Counted from the stretch's first letter, positions 32,825 through 43,780 are shown. The stretch is 48,325 nt of DNA from Dehalococcoidia bacterium (GCA_021160725.1 JAGHCA010000043.1:1-48325), one strand, 5' to 3'. Notes: a model not told the origin generated them from the letters alone. Numbers and translations are program-made.

Positions 32825-33139
32825 CTAGCTTACAGTCGTCTCTACCTTTTTAGCACTCTTTTTCAACACTCCCTTGGGATCGCTGACCACTAGCACAATT
32901 TCCCACACGAAGAGAGCAAAAACAATTACCGCAACTCCAAGCAACGTTGCATCTAGATTTATTTCGAAAAACTCTCCCCCTTCGGTTATATAGGCTATCA
33001 CGTGGTCAACTAACCACATGATCGTTGCTCCCCAGAAAAGCAAGCTTAATAAGCCCAACTTATATTTGTCTTCTGGAGCCTTTACATACCATATCGCTGT
33101 TGCGATTACCGCGGCTAGCGCCGTCATTATGAGCCACAT
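32825..33139 (-). CDS. small membrane protein (3 TM), unknown function; paralogous to its upstream neighbour
   Basis: Hydrophobic 104-aa ORF. FWGATIMWLVDHVIAY...GGEFF resembles LWGGTILLALEHLWHGE of the adjacent ORF. Its start overlaps the neighbour's stop. Confidence 0.6.
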   Translation of the reverse strand: MWLIMTALAAVIATAIWYVKAPEDKYKLGLLSLLFWGATIMWLVDHVIAYITEGGEFFEINLDATLLGVAVIVFALFVWEIVLVVSDPKGVLKKSAKKVETTVS

Positions 33140-33540
33140 CAGGCACCTCCGCTGGCAGGATTCTCTCTTACTTTGGGCATAGCCGCCTTAGCCTTTAGTT
33201 CAGCAACCAAAATCATTATTCCCCAGACGACTGTTATGGTTATAGCCATAGCTCCACCAAATATCGCCATCTCATGAAGCATTGGAGATACATTTGCCGG
33301 ATTTTCCATTGCTGTCAAAAAAGGCGGCCAGGGGACAACTTCTCCATGCCATAAATGTTCCAATGCCAACAGTATAGTACCACCCCATAATAGTTTATTC
33401 AGCCAGCTCAACCTCCGGCTCCAGCTCAACCCTGTTTTTTTAATCCTTTCCTCACCAACCTTCTTCTCTCTGTTCTCCACAACCTTCTGCACAGCCGTTG
33501 CCACAATAGCTTCTCCCATTGGTACAAGAAAACATGCCAT
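33139..33540 (-). CDS. small membrane protein, unknown function
   Basis: 133-aa ORF with AAGGAGGT SD, hydrophobic segments and the motifs EHLWHGE and PMLHEM. Confidence 0.6.
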   Translation of the reverse strand: MACFLVPMGEAIVATAVQKVVENREKKVGEERIKKTGLSWSRRLSWLNKLLWGGTILLALEHLWHGEVVPWPPFLTAMENPANVSPMLHEMAIFGGAMAITITVVWGIMILVAELKAKAAMPKVRENPASGGA

Positions 33541-33633
33541 ATCTTTTTACCTCCTTATTGTATTTTCTAAGTGCTCAGTCGATTCTATGTCAATGATATG
33601 GACTTTGTAACATTTCTCACCTCCTTACACGTC

Positions 33634-33666
33634 TTGCAAATAATTGCAACAGCAGTCAATTGCAAT
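33634..33666. promoter_or_regulatory. candidate Fur-family operator (box a): TTGCAAATAATTGCAA plus an extra ATTGCAAT half-site
   Basis: 33634-33649 matches the perfect palindrome at 37382-37397 in 15/16 positions (reverse complement). A further ATTGCAAT lies at 33659-33666. It sits about 95-125 nt upstream of the 33540 start. Confidence 0.5.
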
Positions 33667-33711
33667 ATAAATTAAAAAATTTGCCAAGTTTAAAAACTCA
33701 TTATTTAAACA

Positions 33712-34311
33712 TCAGCAGGCGCTCTTCTCAGCAATAACCAAATATCGTTCTGGGACATCCTCAAAATGGGTTATCCTCAAACCGGCTTGCTTTATCAGCC
33801 CTTTTAACTGGAACTCGTCGGGCAGAAGGTCATTGGCGATCGCGCCACCGATGGATTGATGAAGTTGGTTAGTCATCTCTCGGCTCATGGTGTGGCAGAT
33901 GACCAGCCGGCCATTATTCCTGAGCACCCTAGCTATTTCCTTCAATGCCTTGCACTTGTCGATAAAATGAGGAAAGGCACTGTTGCATATAGCCAGGTTC
34001 ATAGAATCGTCAGCCAGGGGAATAGCCATACCATCGGCTTGAACAAAATCAACGATGGATAGGGAGCTTTTGGCTTTTCCTTGGACTAGCATCTCTGCGG
34101 AAAAATCCAGGGCGACAATTTTCCCTTCATCACCCAGCTCTGCGATTAGAAAGGGTAACAGGATGCCAGTGCCGCTGCCAATATCAAGCACAGAATATCC
34201 GGGTTTAATGCCTAATTCCTTGACGATGTTTTTCAGACACTTCAACCTCTCCGGGGTAAGCTCTTTATCCCAGGTTGGAGCTAGTTGGTCGAAATATTCT
34301 TGAAGTTGCAT
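33712..34311 (-). CDS. class I SAM-dependent methyltransferase
   Basis: VLDIGSGTGILL motif I and the methyltransferase type 11 pattern. Start taken at MQLQEYF just after the permease stop. Confidence 0.75.
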   Translation of the reverse strand: MQLQEYFDQLAPTWDKELTPERLKCLKNIVKELGIKPGYSVLDIGSGTGILLPFLIAELGDEGKIVALDFSAEMLVQGKAKSSLSIVDFVQADGMAIPLADDSMNLAICNSAFPHFIDKCKALKEIARVLRNNGRLVICHTMSREMTNQLHQSIGGAIANDLLPDEFQLKGLIKQAGLRITHFEDVPERYLVIAEKSAC

Positions 34312-34313
34312 AT

Positions 34314-35168
34314 CTAACCTGCTAACGGAGCTTGCTGCCATCCCTTCACTTTTCTCTTAGGAGAGAATGCTGTTGCCAAGCCAAATATAATGGCAGAAGT
34401 TATCACTATGGCGGCGCCGGAGGGAATGTCGAAGAAATATGAAGCTAAAAGTCCAACCCAGCAAGAAATAACACCAAAAGCTACAGCAATAAGGAGCATC
34501 CGCTTTAAGCTATAAGTAAGTTGATAGGCAGCGGCTGCGGGATTGAGAATAAGGCTGTAAATAAGCAAACCGCCGATACTTTGTAACGAGGCAGTTATAG
34601 TCACACCGGTGGAAAACAACAAGCCGTAGAAAATGATTGTTGCTGGTATGCCCACGGCCAGAGCTACCTCCCGATGGCAAATCACTGCTTGAATTTCCTT
34701 ATAGAAGGCAGCCACCAGCCCGCCTATTACGCCTGTTATAACGGCTAAGAAGATGATATCCTGTTGCGTGACGGTCAATATGCCCCCCCAGAATAGGTTT
34801 AAGGCTTCGGTCCTGGCTCCAGGCATTAGCCCCATGAAAAGAAAAGCAAGTCCTAGCATCAGGGAGAAAACAATGCCGATGGAAGTATCGGGATTTAATT
34901 CACCACGGTCAGCCACAGGCCCGATAATGGCTGCCGAAGCCAGGCTGAATAGCAAGGCGCCAATTAAGGGATTAAACCCCAGCCAGAGACCAAGGAGAGC
35001 CCCAGCAAAAGCAGCGTGGGCAATGCATACTCCGATGAAAGAGAGATGCATGGTAACCACGAAGACGCCCACCACAGAACATGTTATACCCCCGAATAAC
35101 CCGGCTAGAATGGCGTTTTGCATGAAATGATACTGTAAAATAGAAAAATCCATTCCGACACCTGCCAT
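34314..35168 (-). CDS. metal ABC transporter permease (ABC-3, ZnuB/TroC-like)
   Basis: About 8 TM segments and the typical ABC-3 layout. TAATG overlap with the upstream ATPase gene. Confidence 0.8.
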   Translation of the reverse strand: MAGVGMDFSILQYHFMQNAILAGLFGGITCSVVGVFVVTMHLSFIGVCIAHAAFAGALLGLWLGFNPLIGALLFSLASAAIIGPVADRGELNPDTSIGIVFSLMLGLAFLFMGLMPGARTEALNLFWGGILTVTQQDIIFLAVITGVIGGLVAAFYKEIQAVICHREVALAVGIPATIIFYGLLFSTGVTITASLQSIGGLLIYSLILNPAAAAYQLTYSLKRMLLIAVAFGVISCWVGLLASYFFDIPSGAAIVITSAIIFGLATAFSPKRKVKGWQQAPLAG

Positions 35169-35956
35169 TATGTCTGAAGTGGAACAATCTCAGTTGGCAC
35201 TGAGGCCGGAGCTTCGTAAAGCTGACTCAACACCTCTTCCTTGAGCATTGACTCCGGGCTACCTTGCTGCCATATCCTGCCATCCTTCATTAGAATCAGT
35301 CGCTGGCAAATAGAGGGCAGCGTTCTCAGGTCATGGGTGACAAATAGAGTTGTCATATGATACTCCTTGTGAATGAGCTGTATCAGATTTAAGATTTCAC
35401 CTTGAGCTTTTTTATCTATTGAAGCTGTCGGCTCATCGAGAAGTAATATCTCAGGCTGCTGGACTAAAGCTCGAGCAATGGCTGCCCTCTGGTATTCGCC
35501 CCCGGATAGATGACCTATTGGGCGTTGGGATAAATGAGCCATGCCTACCATTTCCAATACCTTATCTACTGTTTCCCATTGAGCCCGTGTTGGCCGACGG
35601 AATAGTCCCAAGCGACCATAACAGCCTACCATTACCGTCTCTCTAACATTGATGGGCAACCTGGGGTCGATATTTTCCACCTGAGCCACGTAGCCTATGC
35701 GCTTCCTCAAATTACTGCCACCTCTCCCGTTTAACAGCGACCCCAGTACCCAGGCTTGTCCATGAACCAGTTTGCCCAGGCCATTAATCACTGTGAGTAA
35801 GGTAGTTTTGCCGGCGCCATTAGGTCCGATAATCCCTATGAATTCTCCTTTCCTCACCTCCAGAGACACGCCCTGTAAAGCCACATCTTCCCGGTAGGAA
35901 ACCACAGCATCACGAATCTTGATAACCGTGTTATCCATATTGTTCCGCCCATTCAT
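35168..35956 (-). CDS. metal ABC transporter ATP-binding protein (ZnuC/TroB-like)
   Basis: Walker A GPNGAGKTT, signature LSGGEYQR, Walker B LLLDEP. Start may be the ATG at 35938. Confidence 0.85.
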   Translation of the reverse strand: MNGRNNMDNTVIKIRDAVVSYREDVALQGVSLEVRKGEFIGIIGPNGAGKTTLLTVINGLGKLVHGQAWVLGSLLNGRGGSNLRKRIGYVAQVENIDPRLPINVRETVMVGCYGRLGLFRRPTRAQWETVDKVLEMVGMAHLSQRPIGHLSGGEYQRAAIARALVQQPEILLLDEPTASIDKKAQGEILNLIQLIHKEYHMTTLFVTHDLRTLPSICQRLILMKDGRIWQQGSPESMLKEEVLSQLYEAPASVPTEIVPLQT

Positions 35957-36788
35957 TCAAAGCTTCCAGCAGTAAATCAACGTTCTTATCTATTGTCTTC
36001 TCCCAGGTTTCGGTGTTTTCCAATCCACCGGGGAAGTTGGATATGGTTACCGGAATGGCTTCAATATCTTGTTCCATAGATGCGCCTAATGTCGTGGAAC
36101 CGCTCTGGAGGTTATCGATGATCAAAGCCGCACCGGCTTCTCTAGCTTCGGTTATCAATTGCTCCACATCGGCCGGGCTCAGCTCTTCAGGCCGACCGAA
36201 AGTAGCCGTGATATTAAACCCGGCCCACTTTACAAACCCCTGTTGCATCTCAGCGCAGAGTACTTTTACTCCGTCTACTCCCGCGTCTTCCAATGTTTGT
36301 TTTACCTGGTCGCCATAATCTAAGATAGCCTGCACCCTCTGTGCAGCTCTATCCTGATAGTATGCGGCGTTCTCAGGGTCTATCTCGCCCAGGGCTTCAG
36401 CAATTTTGTCTACTGCTTCAGCTTGGACCGTGGGTACCATCCAATTGCCCGTAACGTTGAGGACCGTGATAACAAGGTTGGGGTTTTCTGCAGCGTCAAT
36501 CGCTCCATTGATATTTTGGAAATTTTGCTGGTAATCGTGGATGAAAAGGGCTTTGCTGTTAGCCAGTGCTTCGATATCGCTCGGCTTTACATCATAATGT
36601 CCCGGACACACACCCGGTGGTATAAGGGTGCAGATTTCCATTTTATCGCCAGCTACATCCTGAATAATGTCGGTGATAAGCGAGCTCCCGGCCATGATGT
36701 CAGCCGATTGTTGGGCACTGAATAAGAACGTAAATAAAATTGCCAAAACAACTACTGCTACAATGCCTGGTACAAGCTTTCTCTTCAT
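35931..36788 (-). CDS. metal ABC transporter substrate-binding protein (TroA/ZnuA cluster A-I-like, compact, non-canonical ligands)
   Basis: Signal/anchor helix, CPGHYDVKPSDIEAL (the usual dPHxYExxPxD position), long linker helix (PENAAYYQDRAAQ). Confidence 0.7.
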   Translation of the reverse strand: MKRKLVPGIVAVVVLAILFTFLFSAQQSADIMAGSSLITDIIQDVAGDKMEICTLIPPGVCPGHYDVKPSDIEALANSKALFIHDYQQNFQNINGAIDAAENPNLVITVLNVTGNWMVPTVQAEAVDKIAEALGEIDPENAAYYQDRAAQRVQAILDYGDQVKQTLEDAGVDGVKVLCAEMQQGFVKWAGFNITATFGRPEELSPADVEQLITEAREAGAALIIDNLQSGSTTLGASMEQDIEAIPVTISNFPGGLENTETWEKTIDKNVDLLLEALNEWAEQYG

Positions 36789-36812
36789 AGAACCTCCTTA
36801 ATCAGTCAATAG

Positions 36813-37364
36813 TTAGTGCCTGTTCTCTGAAGCCTGGGCAAATTCCCTTTCTATTTGTTCCATCCATTTGCTTACTTTCACTTCCCTTATAGTATAGTAG
36901 CTAGGAGTATAGGGCTTGATATCAATCACAGGACTGCCATCAATAGCATCCAAGCATTTTACCTTCAGAAGATTCCCTTTTCGCTCAAGCAAGGGAACTG
37001 CCGACACACAGATGGGGTTAGGTCGGACAGGGCTACAAGTAGCAAAAATGCCTACCTCTGGCAGGTCCTTTCTACCCATAGGATGAGCTTTGATAAGGGA
37101 ACGGTCTTCTTCTGAAGCCAAATGAGCCCAGTAGAGGACAAGAATGTGAGAGAAATCCTCTATCCCATCGAGAATACCGGTGAAGTCATCAGAGATCAAA
37201 ATCTCCGATATCATGCTTTGCTCTTTCCTCGCATCCCCTAACACTCCCTTCCACTCTAAGTCACGCCACTTAACAACCAAGCTAGGCTCTTTTATCTGGT
37301 TTTTCACTATCCCCACAGGCCTTATCTTCATTCTGGGCAAATCTTTACCACCCTTTCCTGTCAT
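36813..37364 (-). CDS. TrmO/TsaA-like (UPF0066) SAM-binding domain protein
   Basis: MKIRPVGIVKN..., HILVLYW and CSPVRPNPI motifs typical of the TsaA/YaeB family. Start chosen at MTGKGG (GGAG SD); the longer ORF start would overlap the operator. Confidence 0.7.
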   Translation of the reverse strand: MTGKGGKDLPRMKIRPVGIVKNQIKEPSLVVKWRDLEWKGVLGDARKEQSMISEILISDDFTGILDGIEDFSHILVLYWAHLASEEDRSLIKAHPMGRKDLPEVGIFATCSPVRPNPICVSAVPLLERKGNLLKVKCLDAIDGSPVIDIKPYTPSYYTIREVKVSKWMEQIEREFAQASENRH

Positions 37365-37380
37365 CTTAACGCTCCGTCTT

Positions 37381-37398
37381 ATTGCAATTAATTGCAAT
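37381..37398. promoter_or_regulatory. candidate Fur-family operator (box b): perfect 18-bp palindrome ATTGCAATTAATTGCAAT
   Basis: The sequence is identical to its reverse complement. It lies between the CooT-like gene and the TrmO-like/ABC transporter genes, 17 nt upstream of the chosen start. Confidence 0.6.
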
Positions 37399-37414
37399 TA
37401 TCAGGCAAAAAAAA

Positions 37415-37600
37415 TTAATCCTCTTCCAGTTGTATCTGAGACTTTAAGAAATCTATCTGCTGCACCTTTCCTTGGAAAACCCTCTTTTCTCCGAAAAGGG
37501 TCTCTACTTCTACTCGCCGGTCAGCAATTATCATGCGTGCGATGTCCTCCAGAATTGGCTTGTCACCTTCTTTAGCCTCATAAAGTTTAGCCATACACAT
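37415..37600 (-). CDS. CooT-family nickel-binding protein
   Basis: 61 aa beginning MCMAK, like Rhodospirillum CooT as I recall it, with the small beta-barrel pattern ...TLFGEKRVFQGKV. Confidence 0.75.
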   Translation of the reverse strand: MCMAKLYEAKEGDKPILEDIARMIIADRRVEVETLFGEKRVFQGKVQQIDFLKSQIQLEED

Positions 37601-37601
37601 C

Positions 37602-37820
37602 CTAGTACCTCCCCTTGCTCTTTGGCAGAGCCTGCTTTGCTTTCGTTAGTTCGTTGCTAACCGCAGCCATCTTAGCGGCTGCTTCTTGTAACTGTTGGGC
37701 TACCTCAGTGGATAACGAGACAACTTTATCAGCCCAATCACGGAACTCTTTCTCATGCTCGCTGTTGTGTTCAATCCAGTAGTCCAGCAGAATGCGCAGT
37801 TTTTCTCGAACGTCATCCAT
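37602..37820 (-). CDS. small helical protein with HNSEHEKE motif, unknown function
   Basis: 72-aa ORF tightly packed between the Fur-family gene and the CooT-like gene. Confidence 0.5.
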   Translation of the reverse strand: MDDVREKLRILLDYWIEHNSEHEKEFRDWADKVVSLSTEVAQQLQEAAAKMAAVSNELTKAKQALPKSKGRY

Positions 37821-37847
37821 AGCAATGCTTTCACCTACAATGGTCGG

Positions 37848-38276
37848 TCAGACTTTGTGACCTTTTTTTCGGCGGCACCCGCTGCATTCTCCTGAAATGG
37901 CCAGGTGCCTTAAATCGGCATCAAAACCAAATTCCTGAAGCAAGGTCTCTTTTAATGGATATAGTGTAGATTCCTCCAGGTCTATTATCTTGCCGCAGCT
38001 ACGGCAAACGAGGTGATGGTGATGTCCTTTCTCTGCAACATGATAGCGGACACGTCCCTCGCCAAAGTTAGTTTCCGTAACTAAATCTAATTTTTTCAGT
38101 AGTTCTAGGGTGCGATAGACAGTGGATATATTGGCATAGGGATAGCGAGTATGTAACTGCTCGTAGATTTCTTCAGCGCTGATGTGCCCGTCGGCATTAT
38201 GAAGTGCCTCGATGACCAGCATGCGCTGGGGAGTTAAGCGATGTCCCGTTTCTTGAAGAGTTACGTGGCAGCTCAT
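37848..38276 (-). CDS. Fur-family transcriptional metalloregulator (Zur/Nur-like)
   Basis: RLTPQRMLVIEAL winged helix, HHHHLVCRSCGK...CSGC structural-Zn motifs. First ATG at 38276; the TTG extension to 38306 overlaps the predicted promoter. Confidence 0.85.
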   Translation of the reverse strand: MSCHVTLQETGHRLTPQRMLVIEALHNADGHISAEEIYEQLHTRYPYANISTVYRTLELLKKLDLVTETNFGEGRVRYHVAEKGHHHHLVCRSCGKIIDLEESTLYPLKETLLQEFGFDADLRHLAISGECSGCRRKKGHKV

Positions 38277-38288
38277 TGGCAGGGGAGT

Positions 38289-38327
38289 ATTATAACAAGG
38301 TAGCAAAATTATTGCAACAAGTTGCTA
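38289..38327 (-). promoter_or_regulatory. candidate autoregulated promoter of the Fur-family gene, with box c
   Basis: Minus strand reads TAGCAACTTGTTGCAA (38327-38312, 12/16 to box b, symmetric). Its TTGCAA serves as the -35, then a 17-nt spacer and TATAAT (38294-38289). The ATG lies 12 nt downstream, giving a very short leader. Confidence 0.5.
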
Positions 38328-38333
38328 ATGCGA

Positions 38334-38783
38334 TTATTTTCTCGTTTTGCTTTCCAGCGATATGGTGACCGGCCCATCATTATGGATTTCCACCAGCATA
38401 TGCTCTTGGAAAAGCCCTGTTTCCACCTTGAGCCCTGTGGCGCGAACTTGCTCCACGAAAACCTCATATAGTTCCTTAGCCAGATCCGGTGGGGCGGCGT
38501 CAGTAAAGCTGGGTCGCCTCCCCTTGCGTGAATCAGCCAGAAGAGTAAACTGGCTTACTACTAAAATGTCTCCCCTTGTTTCCAGCGCAGAGAGAGAAAA
38601 ATGACTTGACTCATCAGCAAAAATACGCAGGTTAACCACTTTGTTTGCCAGGTAAATGGCATCTTCCTTCGAGTCACTCTTAGCAACGCCGAGAAAAACC
38701 ACCAGCCCCCGCCCAATCTCGCCTACGACATCGTCATCCACGCTCACTGAGGCTCTGGAAACCCGCTGCACTAATGCTTTCAT
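38334..38783 (-). CDS. dtd: D-aminoacyl-tRNA deacylase
   Basis: MKALVQRV...GRGLVVFLGV...SQFTL...GRRPSF motifs, 149 aa. Confidence 0.9.
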   Translation of the reverse strand: MKALVQRVSRASVSVDDDVVGEIGRGLVVFLGVAKSDSKEDAIYLANKVVNLRIFADESSHFSLSALETRGDILVVSQFTLLADSRKGRRPSFTDAAPPDLAKELYEVFVEQVRATGLKVETGLFQEHMLVEIHNDGPVTISLESKTRK

Positions 38784-39220: not shown

Positions 39221-40018
39221 TTAACTACCAATCTTCTGCAGTCTAGAAATTCGGTTCGAAATAGAGGGATGTGAATAGGTATCACGCCTGACATCAGCAC
39301 ATTTCGCTTCTGCGAGTTTCCTCAATCCTTTTATCACTGGGTTAATGCCCACAAAGGTGGCGGCGATTGCGTCAGCCTCGTATTCAAAGCGCCAGCTCAC
39401 CATTGGCAAGATTAACCCGTAAGCAGAGAACACCAGTAACAGATTGACAAGGCCGGGCAAGTGTAAGAATGAGATAAGCAAAAGAACCGGTATAAGCGTC
39501 AGAAACAACACTATGGCATTCTTCATAGAATGTTTGGCTTTAAGATGAGCCAACTCACGTGCCAGAATACCTTTGCGTGTTTCTCTATCGAATTCATCGG
39601 CAACGGCTTGGCCTAAAATAATCTTGCCATCGATAGTAGCTCCTGCATTCAACCACTGCGGCACCATCTTCAAAATGTCTTCTCCTTTCAAACGGACACC
39701 CATCACCTTGGCAAGATTTGAAAGCTCTTCTACAAGCGCAAATGAATATGTTCTTCTTGCCCCAGATATTGTGATTATCTCTCGTAGTTTCTCGGGAAAA
39801 GAGACAACACACTCTGTTAGTGGCACCACTACAAACCCACTCGTGACGGCTAACGCTAGACCGAAGATTATTTTTAGACTGAGGATGTCCGTAACCGCAA
39901 AGAGGAAAACTGAGGCGAGCGTAGACAGAAAAACCCAACGAGTTGTGTTGAAAGCGAACCCTTGGAATTTCGAGCGAAGAGTAGATTCAATTGACGTGGT
40001 GGCAAATCTCCTTCTCAA
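39221..40018 (-). CDS. M48 (HtpX-like) membrane peptidase homologue with RELAH in place of HExxH
   Basis: 2+2 TM topology, FEYEADAIA and SHPSISNRI motifs typical of M48. The zinc motif reads ILARELAHLKAKH. Confidence 0.55.
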   Translation of the reverse strand: MRRRFATTSIESTLRSKFQGFAFNTTRWVFLSTLASVFLFAVTDILSLKIIFGLALAVTSGFVVVPLTECVVSFPEKLREIITISGARRTYSFALVEELSNLAKVMGVRLKGEDILKMVPQWLNAGATIDGKIILGQAVADEFDRETRKGILARELAHLKAKHSMKNAIVLFLTLIPVLLLISFLHLPGLVNLLLVFSAYGLILPMVSWRFEYEADAIAATFVGINPVIKGLRKLAEAKCADVRRDTYSHPSISNRISRLQKIGS

Positions 40019-40024
40019 ACTTGA

Positions 40025-40553
40025 CTATCCTCCTCTCTTGATGACCGATAGGTACTCAGTGAAAGAGGCCGCCGGCAGTTTCCTTTGCTTGGAGAGCATT
40101 CCCGCCCAGATTTCATCAGCTTCATCCAGATTTATAAGTCCTGTTTTATAAGCCTGACGTAATACACCCGCTGTTGTCAGCAAGCACTTTTTATTTTTGC
40201 TACAGAATGCTTCAACATCAGACAGGTTATTACTTGCCAGAATGCCATCGTGTTGTGTTAGATATGCCATGCAAGACGCCTCTCCGCTGCCGTATCTGCC
40301 AGACTCGAGGAATTTTGCCAATTGAAGAGCTTCGGAGGAGGCAGCAAGCATCGCCTCACTTCTTATATGCCCGTTTTTTTATGGATAGTTCCACCCTTGA
40401 TGCTAAATGTGGCACCCTTCTCAATTCCTCTAATACCTCTTCCAGTACAACCATTCGTTTTGAATACAGCCCTTCCAAAATGTCCAGTCGCTTGCCCCAG
40501 GCAAAACTGGATAAAAAATCCGAATCAAGAATGATAGGAGGCTCAGTCGACAA
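40025..40553 (-). pseudogene. PIN-domain nuclease-like gene split by a frameshift at an A7 tract
   Basis: ORF 40356-40553 (PIILDSDFLSSF...) and ORF 40025-40351 (...GSGEASCMAYL...ILASNNLSDV...) together resemble one PIN-like protein. Removing one A from the A7 run (T7 on plus, 40374-40380) fuses them as ...SIKNGHIRSEAMLAASSEAL... Confidence 0.55.
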
Positions 40554-41280
40554 CGTCGAGCTCCTCCGATGCCTCCATTACTTCTTCTAGTAAGTCTGCA
40601 TCAGCTAAGATTTCTTCGTATCTCGAATCGGTGATAAGATTCTTCTGTAACGCTTCGTTTGCCTTTTCAGCATAATCTGAGATTATGACCTTGTCATCGG
40701 TTGTCATGTACAAGTCAATGTTCTTACCAAGTGACCTAGCGCTCTGGATAACGTTGATGCAATATTTTTCGCTCTGTTCGCGTGTGATGAACTTCAAATC
40801 TTCCAGCCTCCAACAGATCGCCTTTCTGCTTACGCCGAAAAATTGCTCCAAATTTATGATGTCTGCCAACGTTAGCTTCATGTCCAGTTTCTTGCGCAGC
40901 CGAAGCTGATTCAAGATAGCATCTTCCGGCATGAGCAGATACACTGCAAACATATTAGCAACCTGCTCGATGCCTCGACTCTGGCCAAAAGCCTCCGTTT
41001 TGCACGCACGGCTAACGAGATTTTCATCATAAAGGCAGTGGTAAAGCTCATGAGCAATCGTGAAATTCTGGTGTCCCAGAGTCTTTGAGGAATTTATCAG
41101 AATTACCTTGACTTTATTTGTCTTGAGGGTTGCGCCCGAGATGCTGCTTTCTAATGGCCTCTTGACACAGGTTATCCCCAGTGACGTCACAGCCCTGTAG
41201 ACATCGAAGTACTCGGTTGACTGTAGTCCGAGCGTCAGGCGAGTATCAATTGCCAGTTGATGTGCTTTGCTTTCTTTCAT
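40543..41280 (-). CDS. ImmA/IrrE-family metallopeptidase (COG2856)
   Basis: FTIAHELYHCLYDE HExxH motif and typical length. Directly downstream of the XRE gene. Confidence 0.8.
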   Translation of the reverse strand: MKESKAHQLAIDTRLTLGLQSTEYFDVYRAVTSLGITCVKRPLESSISGATLKTNKVKVILINSSKTLGHQNFTIAHELYHCLYDENLVSRACKTEAFGQSRGIEQVANMFAVYLLMPEDAILNQLRLRKKLDMKLTLADIINLEQFFGVSRKAICWRLEDLKFITREQSEKYCINVIQSARSLGKNIDLYMTTDDKVIISDYAEKANEALQKNLITDSRYEEILADADLLEEVMEASEELDVVD

Positions 41281-41283
41281 GAT

Positions 41284-41622
41284 TCACTCTCCAAGTAGAC
41301 GGTACAAGCTATCTAGATTACGTGCTATCTTCTCTACTTGAGCGATAATCGGGAGGTCGCTGTCGTTCAAATCTGAAACTCTGAAAGCCATAAACACCTG
41401 AGGCCCCTCATCTTTTGCAGACTCATCCACGAAATATGAGAATTTGTAGCCATAGAGGTCAGCAAGCTTCCGTAACATCAACGTGCTTACTGGTCTGGCG
41501 CCAGTCTCAATGTAAGAGATAATTTCTCTTTTAATTCCTAGATACTTTGCAACTTGCTCTTGAGTGAAGCCAATAGATTCTCTAACGGATTGCAAACGTT
41601 TACCAATAGTTTTGTTATCCAT
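41284..41622 (-). CDS. XRE-family helix-turn-helix transcriptional regulator
   Basis: IGKRLQSVRESIGFTQEQVAKYLGIKREIISYIETGARPVS HTH_3 pattern. Start at MDNKT with a GGGGGAG SD. Confidence 0.8.
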   Translation of the reverse strand: MDNKTIGKRLQSVRESIGFTQEQVAKYLGIKREIISYIETGARPVSTLMLRKLADLYGYKFSYFVDESAKDEGPQVFMAFRVSDLNDSDLPIIAQVEKIARNLDSLYRLLGE

Positions 41623-41669
41623 TGCTGCTCCCCCTTCAGTGTTACACATATATGTGGAATATTGAATCT

Positions 41670-43703: not shown

Positions 43704-43780
43704 GTCCCTGTAGCTCAGCTGGACAGAGCGGCTGCCTTCTAAGCAGCGGGTCGTGGGTTCGAATCCCTCCAGGGACGCCA
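43704..43780 (+). tRNA. tRNA-Arg (anticodon TCT), CCA encoded
   Basis: Acceptor GTCCCTG/CAGGGAC, anticodon stem GCTGC/GCAGC, loop CTTCTAA, T-loop TTCGAAT, 3' GCCA followed by a T-run. Confidence 0.88.

Follow-up and report, generated by a model that had tools for sequence, protein, structure and literature searches.

The window analysed here, a 48,325-nucleotide stretch of DNA from a Dehalococcoidia bacterium (GCA_021160725.1 JAGHCA010000043.1:1-48325), contains a locus in which all genes lie on the minus strand and three intergenic regions carry a recurrent palindrome. The locus opens with the gene for a Nur-like, 142-residue Fur-family regulator (37848..38276; PF01475 over residues 9-120, 111.4 bits, cut-off 23.1, E 4e-32), followed by genes for a conserved 72-residue protein, p72 (37602..37820), and a 61-residue CooT-family nickel-binding protein (37415..37600; PF10133, 45.4 bits, cut-off 27, E 1e-11). 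Searches of p72 against Pfam and NCBIfam profiles gave no match, and its gene sits at the same place, between the regulator gene and cooT, in most orthologous loci. CooT binds nickel via Cys2 (PMC6006190), and this residue is present in the N-terminus encoded here, MCMAK.

The transporter operon that follows begins with a TrmO_N-domain protein (36813..37364; PF01980, TIGR00104), whose start was set at the ATG at 37364 with a GGAG 7 nt 5' of it. Among the orthologous loci only L017 shares a TrmO-like gene at this position with the window; in L002 a TrmO_N domain is fused to a DGC domain within a NikA-type operon. Downstream lie genes for a divergent ZnuA/TroA-family substrate-binding protein (35931..36788; PF01297), an ABC transporter ATPase (35168..35956; PF00005), an ABC-3 family permease (34314..35168; PF00950, E 6e-58) and, last in the operon, a class I SAM-dependent methyltransferase (33712..34341; PF13847 and PF08241). 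The methyltransferase also resembles the DVU_1556 methyltransferase family, with a score below threshold, and its gene stands 3' of the permease gene in most loci with this transporter. The locus closes with two membrane proteins of 133 and 104 residues, mem133 (33139..33540) and its partner mem104 (32825..33139). Family profile searches gave no match for mem133; its 358 relatives in metagenomes, which keep the N-terminal MAC where aligned, are paired with mem104 in nearly all loci long enough to tell, and a Fur-like gene often adjoins them.

All three palindromes and the extra half-site reported in a preliminary description of this DNA were found where it had placed them, and, as every gene in the region is on the minus strand, the boxes lie upstream of the genes named there. 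O1, ATTGCAATTAATTGCAAT, is a perfect 18-bp palindrome (37381-37398, no strand assigned) made of ATTGCAAT-TA-ATTGCAAT, with 17 bp separating it from the cooT stop region on one side and from the TrmO-like ATG on the other. O2 is also without an assigned strand; its copy at 33634-33649, TTGCAAATAATTGCAA, agrees with the 16-mer at 15 of 16 positions, is itself an exact TTGCAA-N4-TTGCAA and, with the nearby half-site ATTGCAAT at 33659-33666, forms a three-hexamer array, TTGCAA-ATAA-TTGCAA-N10-TTGCAA (33634..33665). O3, the predicted autoregulatory operator (38312..38327, minus strand), reads TTGCAACAAGTTGCTA on the plus strand and TAGCAACTTGTTGCAA on the coding strand, that is, TAGCAAC-TT-GTTGCAA. 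The three intergenic regions, all within 4.7 kb, hold two exact TTGCAA-N4-TTGCAA boxes and one with a single mismatch.

These numbers are far above expectation. Two exact boxes were observed against 0.012 expected per window, and two or more occurred in none of 1000 dinucleotide shuffles; with up to one mismatch, three were observed against 0.29 expected, and at least three occurred in 3 of 1000 shuffles. Looser pattern searches of the window, at up to two and up to three mismatches, were not significant, and exact hexamer pairs at other spacings from 0 to 11 were absent except at gap 10, which appears because the site at 33634 has a third hexamer. The signal resides in the near-exact copies and their positions, and a chance origin of the boxes is excluded.

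The position of the boxes relative to promoters differs between the three sites. The proposed TTGCAA-17-TATAAT promoter overlapped by O3 was recovered as the best-scoring promoter of the region (minus strand, 38317 to 38289), with 10 of 12 matches, a 17-nt spacer and a TGn-TATAAT extended -10, and the promoter-proximal hexamer of O3 forms its -35. The regulator ATG follows 13 nt past the -10, leaving a very short leader, and the promoter consensus TTGCAATAAtTtt..N..TGnTAtAaT is kept across regulator orthologs. Two further minus-strand hexamers flank O3. TTGCTA (coding strand; 38301..38306), with one mismatch, lies 5 bp 3' of the -35 hexamer, forms a 6-5-6 arrangement with 38312-38317 and is weakly conserved in orthologs as taattttgct/gtt; it may serve as an additional half-site. 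TCGCAT (38328..38333) abuts O3 immediately 3' of the dtd stop codon and has the ortholog consensus TTGCAT (TtGCAt-TaGCAAC); gap-0 hexamer pairs are enriched across the comparison loci. At O2, a candidate promoter of the mem133-mem104 operon can be read from the sequence (33659..33687, minus strand), with a -35 TTGGCA (33687..33682), a 17-nt spacer and a -10 TGCAAT (33664..33659) that falls inside the distal hexamer. The consensus promoter scan missed it, as the second base of the -10 is a G, and orthologs carry a counterpart, TTGACA-17-TGCAAT, at the same place. At O1 the scan of this window gave no convincing sigma-70 promoter, and the box there may control transcription that reads through from the operon upstream.

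Phylogenetic footprinting backs all three positions, and with them the proposal of a Fur-family regulon with three operators. The comparison loci, among them 80 orthologous Dehalococcoidia loci (1.03 Mb; regulator 60-93% identical), were picked via the regulator gene or via mem133, so that the co-occurrence of box and regulator is partly built in. Up to one mismatch, the 80 loci contained 96 box matches at gap 4 against 7, 6 and 5 at gaps 3, 5 and 6; 46 of the 96 are upstream of the regulator gene, mostly 45-51 bp from the start codon, and others lie directly 3' of cooT (25), of the regulator gene (11) or of the methyltransferase gene (3). Counted by locus, a box stands 45-51 bp 5' of the Fur-family start codon in 42 of 72 cases (56 of 72 with up to two mismatches), a fixed placement that supports the suggested autoregulation. 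The transporter site, within 100 bp past cooT or past the regulator gene where cooT is missing, holds a box in 52 of 76 loci (up to two mismatches), and the position equivalent to O1 in 25 of 42 (up to one). Similarly, 25 of 66 metagenome loci have a box with up to one mismatch 5' of the mem133/mem104 genes, and three-hexamer arrays with the 32-bp span of O2 recur 5' of mem133 in orthologs (e.g., L007, L082, L084, L091, L092, L097 and L098). The families encoded immediately 3' of boxes are the regulator (66), mem133 (32), the ZnuA-like protein (21) and NikM (8). Random or intragenic scatter had been named as evidence against the motif; instead, 134 of 153 matches (88%) are non-coding, compared with about 20% non-coding sequence (p ~1e-72).

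It is very improbable that the repeats are no protein operators at all and just serve as promoter elements, form RNA hairpins or terminators, or reflect AT-rich symmetry that arose by chance. One hexamer does double as a -35, but the dyad keeps its 4-bp spacing while its placement relative to -35 and -10 varies across three promoter classes. The palindromes could fold into short hairpins (-7.6 to -10.9 kcal/mol), yet these are no more stable than those of shuffled sequence (z from -0.6 to -1.7), and terminator calling at the palindrome positions gave none. Chance symmetry is contradicted by the shuffles and by the non-coding bias.

The regulator itself resembles a known nickel sensor. Its best match among solved structures is 3EYY, Nur of Streptomyces coelicolor (115 bits, E 3e-32), against at most 89 bits for other Fur, PerR and Zur structures and 63-66 bits for actinobacterial Zur/FurB; judged by these scores and by pairwise identity (44%), its closest characterised relative is Nur and not Fur, Zur or PerR. 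The recognition helix, NISTVYRTLELL, with its DNA-contacting Tyr-Arg, is identical to that of Nur and varies hardly at all among orthologs 55-93% identical. Nur is a nickel-dependent repressor of nikABCDE and nikMNOQ (PMC2691836; PMC7055735), acting as the holo-protein, a mode that may also apply to the Dehalococcoidia regulator. The Streptomyces Nur box, tTGCaa-N5-ttGCAA (PMC2691836), has the same half-site with a 5-bp spacing, compared with 4 bp here (6-4-6, or 7-2-7), and its 6-5-6 spacing is not matched in the 1.03 Mb, where gap 5 accounts for 6 matches against 96 at gap 4.

Within the protein, 73 regulator orthologs share without exception the two CxxC pairs (C91, C94, C131, C134), which in many Fur-family members make up the structural Cys4 site, the M-site residues H33, H88 and H90, H81 as a possible alternative ligand, and one more His, at position 89; all but this last His are noted as common to Nur. 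The M-site H86 is replaced by Gly; a Nur H86A mutant retains DNA binding (PMC2691836). The Ni-site of Nur is not conserved: H126 is retained in 73/73, H70 is Glu in 73/73 and H72 is Asp, Asn or Ala, although according to a review this site is possibly a crystallisation artefact (PMC7055735).

Binding of the palindromes by another regulator encoded elsewhere, rather than by the adjacent Fur-family protein, appears improbable. The linkage is inflated by the choice of loci via the regulator gene, and the operon also encodes p72, a small protein with no family match. Against this, Nur has the same half-site, as defined by footprinting, and the same recognition helix, and the box keeps its place at the promoter of the regulator gene also where identity falls to about 60%. 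Moreover, loci chosen via mem133 again show an adjacent Fur-like gene with a box at its promoter, even in a clade only 38-50% identical. To our knowledge the box is unlike the operators of NikR or RcnR, that of NikR being unrelated to TTGCAA-N4-TTGCAA.

The content of the predicted regulon points to nickel. The CooT gene is part of the regulator operon in most loci, and in related genomes the box precedes CbiM/NikM, PDGLE, CbiQ and ATPase genes or NikA-type SBP_bac_5 transporters. It is also flanked there by a transporter operon on one side and, on the other, by the divergent genes larB and larE of the nickel-pincer cofactor, both of which exceed NCBIfam cut-offs. With operator and regulator as proposed, the effector could instead be zinc, in a Zur-like system with a ZnuABC-type importer, or cobalt, with CbiMNQO-type targets, a possibility that we regard as unlikely. 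The main local target is of the ZnuA/ABC-3 type, whose other members are known to handle Zn, Mn or Fe, and the regulator gene adjoins znuABC-like genes, the arrangement classically seen for Zur. The Ni-site specific to Nur is not conserved, and the predicted regulon includes FmdE-domain proteins that carry a C4 zinc ribbon. The ECF targets match the Pfam 'cobalt' families CbiM and CbiQ, and CbiM-type transporters can carry cobalt in place of nickel. The CooT gene and the divergent larB and larE speak against either metal, as do the Nur-over-Zur structure scores against zinc, and uptake of free cobalt is less expected because Dehalococcoidia salvage corrinoids. The binding protein also appears to lack the canonical Zn/Mn His ligands. 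Only its N-terminal part aligns with characterised Mn/Zn binding proteins, it reads CPGHY where the motif DPHEY is expected (pairwise alignment), and in 38 orthologs C61, C178, H84, M117 and D225 are conserved while H64 is not strongly so; the remaining ligands were mapped through motifs, the canonical set being His/His/(His or Glu)/Asp.

Compared with known systems, nickel-dependent control of NikMNQO- and NikABCDE-type importers, predicted here from box position, would be shared with Nur. The system differs in its host (Chloroflexota instead of Actinomycetota), in the predicted autoregulation and co-transcription of the regulator with the CooT gene, in targets that include a ZnuA-type transporter and membrane proteins of no known family, and in that no sodF/sodN target was seen. 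NikR-controlled nik operons would be functionally equivalent (PMC7055735), but NikR belongs to an unrelated family (ribbon-helix-helix). Zur-znuABC loci likewise have a Fur-family repressor gene adjoining a ZnuA/ABC-3/ATPase importer, with control predicted here, whereas in the present system the binding protein has conserved Cys61 and Cys178 and appears to lack the canonical His ligands, the same regulator and box occur elsewhere at NikM- and NikA-type transporters, and a CooT gene is in the operon. The classical Fur, PerR and Zur boxes, 7-1-7 inverted repeats such as TGATAAT-N-ATTATCA (described in part in PMC2691836), are also AT-rich, overlap promoters, are bound by Fur-family dimers (as predicted here), occur in overlapping or adjacent arrays and are commonly autoregulatory. 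The boxes described here have the half-site TTGCAA[C/T] and an even 2-bp centre in place of a single central base. The earlier statement that the palindrome differs from the classical Fur box is right as to the half-site, but incomplete in that the Nur box has this very half-site (PMC2691836).

Taken together, the three palindromes probably serve as operators for the Fur-family repressor encoded next to them, which would be a nickel sensor of the Nur type. Under nickel sufficiency, the metal-loaded dimer would bind TTGCAA-N4-TTGCAA, overlapping core promoter elements (the -35 at the regulator promoter, -10 to about +25 at the membrane-protein promoter), and block RNA polymerase, with the flanking hexamers probably recruiting a second dimer. 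Repression, rather than activation, would then affect the regulator-p72-CooT operon, the TrmO-like/ZnuABC-type transporter/methyltransferase operon and the mem133-mem104 operon. Nickel limitation would derepress all three in order to acquire and deliver nickel, the presumed effector and the putative substrate of the ZnuABC-type and mem133/mem104 systems. The best reading is therefore a nickel-responsive, autoregulated regulon under a Nur-like repressor, and the palindromes are most likely the signature of a nickel-uptake regulon of uncultured Dehalococcoidia that has so far gone undescribed.

The three predicted operator sites share the pattern TTGCAA-N4-TTGCAA (the 6-4-6 box); all are intergenic and span 4.7 kb of a stretch in which every gene lies on the minus strand. 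As the preliminary description had reported, a perfect 18-bp palindrome, ATTGCAATTAATTGCAAT, is found at 37381-37398 (operator O1), TTGCAAATAATTGCAA at 33634-33649 with an additional ATTGCAAT at 33659-33666 (operator O2, 33634-33665), and TTGCAACAAGTTGCTA at 38312-38327 of the plus strand, where the coding strand reads TAGCAACTTGTTGCAA (operator O3). Because the genes are all on the minus strand, each box does stand upstream of the genes to which it had been assigned. In their direction of transcription, dtd (38334-38783) is followed by O3 with its promoter (38289-38327) and by the genes for the Fur-family regulator (37848-38276; PF01475), p72 (37602-37820), a 72-aa protein of no known family, and CooT (37415-37600; PF10133). 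Beyond O1 come a TrmO_N-domain protein (36813-37364), a ZnuA-family binding protein (35931-36788), an ABC ATPase (35168-35956), an ABC-3 permease (34314-35168) and a class I SAM methyltransferase (33712-34341), and beyond O2 a pair of small membrane proteins that belong to no known family, mem133 (133 aa; 33139-33540) and mem104 (104 aa; 32825-33139). The remainder of the window holds housekeeping genes. Homologs are labelled Dehalococcoidia and Chloroflexota, and the window sequence is present in hydrothermal-vent and sediment metagenomes, all of them DNA; a search of RNA-seq data returned one unrelated metatranscriptome with 5% of the sampled words and otherwise only DNA metagenomes.

Exact boxes number two in the window vs 0.012 expected, and at least two arose in 0 of 1000 dinucleotide-preserving shuffles, on which count chance is rejected as the origin of the palindromes. 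With one mismatch allowed there are three vs 0.29 expected, and at least three arose in 3 of 1000 shuffles. Pattern-tool counts in the window with up to two or three mismatches are not significant alone, and the signal is carried only by the near-exact statistics and the box positions, not by loose matches. The sole further 6-4-6 match in the window, TTGCAAACGTTTACCA at 41590-41605 with two mismatches, lies within an XRE-type gene and is taken to be chance. This locus (40543-41649, minus) encodes an XRE-type HTH protein of 121 aa and, after it, an M78 peptidase-domain protein of 245 aa that is IrrE/ImmA-like; close by are the gene of a membrane protein of the M48 peptidase family (39221-40018) and a pair of small family-less ORFs. 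Adjoining a tRNA gene (43704-43777), the stretch looks like a small accessory island.

Phylogenetic footprinting was based on 80 Dehalococcoidia loci with regulator orthologs of 60-93% identity (1.03 Mb in total), in which 96 boxes with at most one mismatch were found. Nearly half (46) are upstream of the regulator gene, mostly 45-51 bp from its start codon, while 25 lie directly past the cooT stop codon ahead of the next operon, 11 directly past the regulator gene in loci without p72 and cooT, three past a methyltransferase gene and about 11 elsewhere, several of these ahead of further transporter genes. When two mismatches are allowed, a box occurs in the 50-bp interval upstream of the regulator gene in 56 of 72 loci and within 100 bp past cooT or the regulator gene in 52 of 76. 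The half-site gap is sharply defined, with 96 matches (28 exact) at a gap of 4 in these 80 loci vs 7, 6 and 5 at gaps of 3, 5 and 6; minor peaks at 0 and 10 stem from extra hexamers flanking the dyad. Over 160 loci and the window, 134 of 153 matches are non-coding vs about 20% non-coding sequence (p ~1e-72), by a crude gene call of which several of the 19 'coding' matches are artefacts, so the motif is not scattered at random and inside genes, the pattern that the preliminary description had named as speaking against a regulon. That the motif exists, is conserved and takes these positions is a matter of observation.

For O2, a further 80 metagenome loci were fetched through mem133. The mem133-mem104 pair is present in nearly all of those long enough to show both, a Fur-like gene shares the locus in roughly 40 of the 80, and a box with at most one mismatch lies within 400 bp upstream of mem133 in 25 of 66. 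Close relatives retain the three-hexamer array with the 32-bp span seen in the window. There are also three MAGs with two regulator gene copies each (loci L021 and L041; L031 and L050; L039 and L054), a pattern that may be genuine paralogy or may stem from mixed strains in the bins. The DAITOK01 MAG carries two full regulator-p72-cooT cassettes; a ZnuABC-type operon comes after one and a NikM-type ECF transporter after the second.

The placement of the dyad relative to promoter elements differs between the three kinds of site. At the regulator promoter, where the ortholog consensus is TtGCAt-TaGCAAC-TT-GTTGCAA-TAAtTtt-N-TGnTAtAaT, the overlap of box and -35 noted earlier is borne out: the -35 is the promoter-proximal hexamer, 17 nt separate it from an extended -10, and the start codon lies about 13 nt further on. 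The transporter sites have the consensus TAA-TTTTTTTgCc-N6-TTGCAAtTAaTTGCAa-aTGCAt, with a -10-like element next in most genomes. At the predicted mem133 promoter, orthologs have TTGACA-17-TGCAAT, with a -10 that falls within the first hexamer and the remaining hexamers downstream of it; the window has TTGGCA-17-TGCAAT. Such differing registers to the -35 and -10 speak for an operator role of the dyad over that of a mere promoter element. In some relatives the regulator promoter carries a pair of adjoining 6-4-6 dyads, as would fit the binding of two dimers. In the window and in locus L017, a TrmO-like gene is inserted after the transporter box, and no good sigma-70 promoter was found at O1 by consensus scan of the window, nor is one evident in L017; the target of O1 may therefore be the weak promoter candidate TTGCCT-16-TGCAAT or transcription reading through from the operon upstream.

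That the palindromes instead act as RNA hairpins or terminators is rejected, since their folds are weak and no terminator was called at these positions. In an Rfam scan of the whole window only tRNAs were matched; no riboswitch, of the NiCo class or any other, turned up near the operators. Some 90 nt of leader separate O2 from the mem133 start codon (about 33541-33628, minus). The nucleotide sequence of this leader is conserved, as GGAGGTGAGAAATG...AAGGAGGTAAAAAG-ATG, in loci L082-L085, L091, L092, L111, L112 and L120; more distant loci instead show, right at the ribosome-binding site, a degenerate box, TCGCAATTAATCGCAA. The leader had suggested an RNA element or a leader peptide, but RNAalifold of 13 sequences yielded essentially no shared structure (-0.24 kcal/mol, no compensatory pairs), Rfam had no match and the short ORF is not conserved; it was rejected as a riboswitch candidate.

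The closest solved structure to the regulator is that of the Streptomyces coelicolor nickel sensor Nur (3EYY, 115 bits; 44% identity), followed by Fur and PerR at no more than 89 bits and actinobacterial Zur/FurB at 63-66 bits. Twelve recognition-helix residues, NISTVYRTLELL, are identical to those of Nur, the DNA-contacting Tyr-Arg included, and the helix is nearly invariant in regulator orthologs of 55-93% identity. The footprint-derived Nur box, tTGCaa-N5-ttGCAA (PMC2691836; PMC3919588), has the same half-site as the Dehalococcoidia box and differs only in spacing (6-5-6 vs 6-4-6). These protein similarities are likewise observed directly. Of the two metal sites of Nur, the M-site keeps H33, H88 and H90 in the regulator and has Gly for H86, whereas the Ni-site keeps H126 and has Glu and Asp/Asn for H70 and H72. 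Nur with the H86A mutation retains DNA binding (PMC2691836), and it has been cautioned in a review that the Nur Ni-site may be a crystallisation artefact (PMC7055735). By analogy, the Dehalococcoidia regulator would be Nur-like in its working, while lacking the 6-5-6 spacing as well as the histidines of the Ni-site, both of them Nur-defining.

If the box were bound by an unlinked regulator, the match of both recognition helix and half-site to Nur would be hard to account for, and the linkage is still seen where identity of the Fur-like gene has dropped to 38-50%, in a clade that keeps TTGCAAC-N-GGTGCAA after TATAAT; binding by an unlinked regulator is thus unlikely. Sister clades of the regulator show the same half-site in other arrangements (L086-L090, L093, L100, L121, L132; L108, L123, L124, L128, L130, L153). 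Where identity is 65-73%, the -35 region carries either a pair of adjoining 6-4-6 dyads or TTGCAA-N10-TTGCAA, and where it is 38-50%, with the helix NKSTVYRTLELL, the element fills the short interval that runs from the end of TATAAT nearly to the start codon.

The genes linked to the box point to nickel. CooT, encoded in the operon of the regulator (the window protein begins MCMAK), is a nickel-binding protein that binds via Cys2 (PMC6006190). In other genomes, the box in the same position precedes ECF transporters of the CbiM/NikM, PDGLE, CbiQ and ATPase type, and boxes also precede NikA-type SBP_bac_5 ABC transporters and FmdE-domain proteins. In loci L002 and L016, the box adjoins larB and larE, genes of the nickel-pincer cofactor, both of which score over the NCBIfam cut-offs. 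The ZnuA/ABC-3 transporters to which that of the window belongs otherwise carry Zn, Mn or Fe, and the main rival reading is that the effector is another metal (Zn or Co), which is considered rather improbable. Two genomes (L038:13617-15352 and L053:3092-4812) have a box ahead of a Cys-rich 55-aa ORF (MCAP...GGxVSGCTGxCQ...), beyond which come genes for a radical-SAM/SPASM enzyme and for a membrane protein of 190 aa; the cassette is RiPP-like and would share the putative nickel control.

Only the N-terminal part of the ZnuA-family binding protein aligns with characterised Mn/Zn binding proteins; its usual first His motif, DPHEY, reads CPGHY, and C61, C178, H84, M117 and D225 are conserved in place of the usual His set in 38 orthologs of 37-82% identity, which suggests a different metal site. 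SAM-methyltransferase-like genes recurrently accompany the ZnuABC-type operon; in most loci the gene that comes after that of the permease encodes a class I methyltransferase. As first gene downstream of the box, the window and L017 have that of the TrmO_N protein, and L001 (1820-2320), L024, L025, L111 and L112 have one for a PEMT/ICMT-like membrane methyltransferase; a DGC+TrmO_N fusion lies within a NikA-type operon (L002:15811-16827). A literature search for a link between TrmO and nickel transport returned nothing relevant. No Pfam or NCBIfam match was found for p72, mem133 or mem104, even at E up to 5. The latter two have about three TM helices each and 358 detected relatives, often adjoin a Fur-like gene and are the commonest genes downstream of the box after the regulator gene itself; mem133 starts Met-Ala-Cys in aligned relatives, and the pair is a candidate new nickel permease. 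The p72 protein is helical with the motif LLDYWIEHNxEHExEFRxWA, has its gene flanked by those of the regulator and CooT in the majority of orthologous loci, and could be a metal-binding partner.

From the analogy with Nur, a nickel-dependent repressor of nikABCDE and nikMNOQ (PMC2691836; PMC7055735), and from the gene content, we infer that the regulator binds the box, in which direction it regulates and to which metal it responds. A nickel-loaded regulator dimer would sit on the 6-4-6 dyad, with additional dimers on flanking hexamers, and would occlude the promoters of three units, namely the operon of the regulator itself (regulator, p72, CooT), the TrmO-like/ABC transporter/methyltransferase operon and the mem133-mem104 operon; nickel limitation would relieve the repression.

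To date, Nur of Streptomyces is the sole member of the Fur family described as responding to nickel (PMC7055735). A 2009 survey of nickel and cobalt utilisation does not mention Nur, and no description of Nur or of a Fur-family nickel regulon in Chloroflexi or Dehalococcoides was found in the searchable literature. Our reading, put forward tentatively, is of a clade-wide Dehalococcoidia nickel regulon with a Nur-like sensor lacking the histidine Ni-site, a 6-4-6 box and undescribed kinds of nickel-acquisition system. Candidates for such systems are the ZnuA/ABC-3 importer with a Cys-containing site, always together with SAM methyltransferase-like genes, the mem133/mem104 two-protein membrane system with its conserved N-terminal Met-Ala-Cys and, in some genomes, the Cys-rich 55-aa peptide with its radical-SAM/SPASM enzyme.

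If true, a second, distant nickel-responsive Fur lineage would be a natural experiment on metal specificity and half-site spacing, as it shares recognition helix and half-site with Nur, differs in spacing and has no equivalent of the proposed Ni-site. Dehalococcoidia are widespread in sediment and the subsurface, mostly uncultured, and rely on nickel enzymes, hydrogenases and CODH/ACS among them. The proposed regulon brings new candidate nickel-acquisition genes into view, and the box would offer a simple sequence tag for nickel-homeostasis genes of Dehalococcoidia, reaching transporter candidates that homology alone labels zinc/manganese importers or hypothetical proteins.
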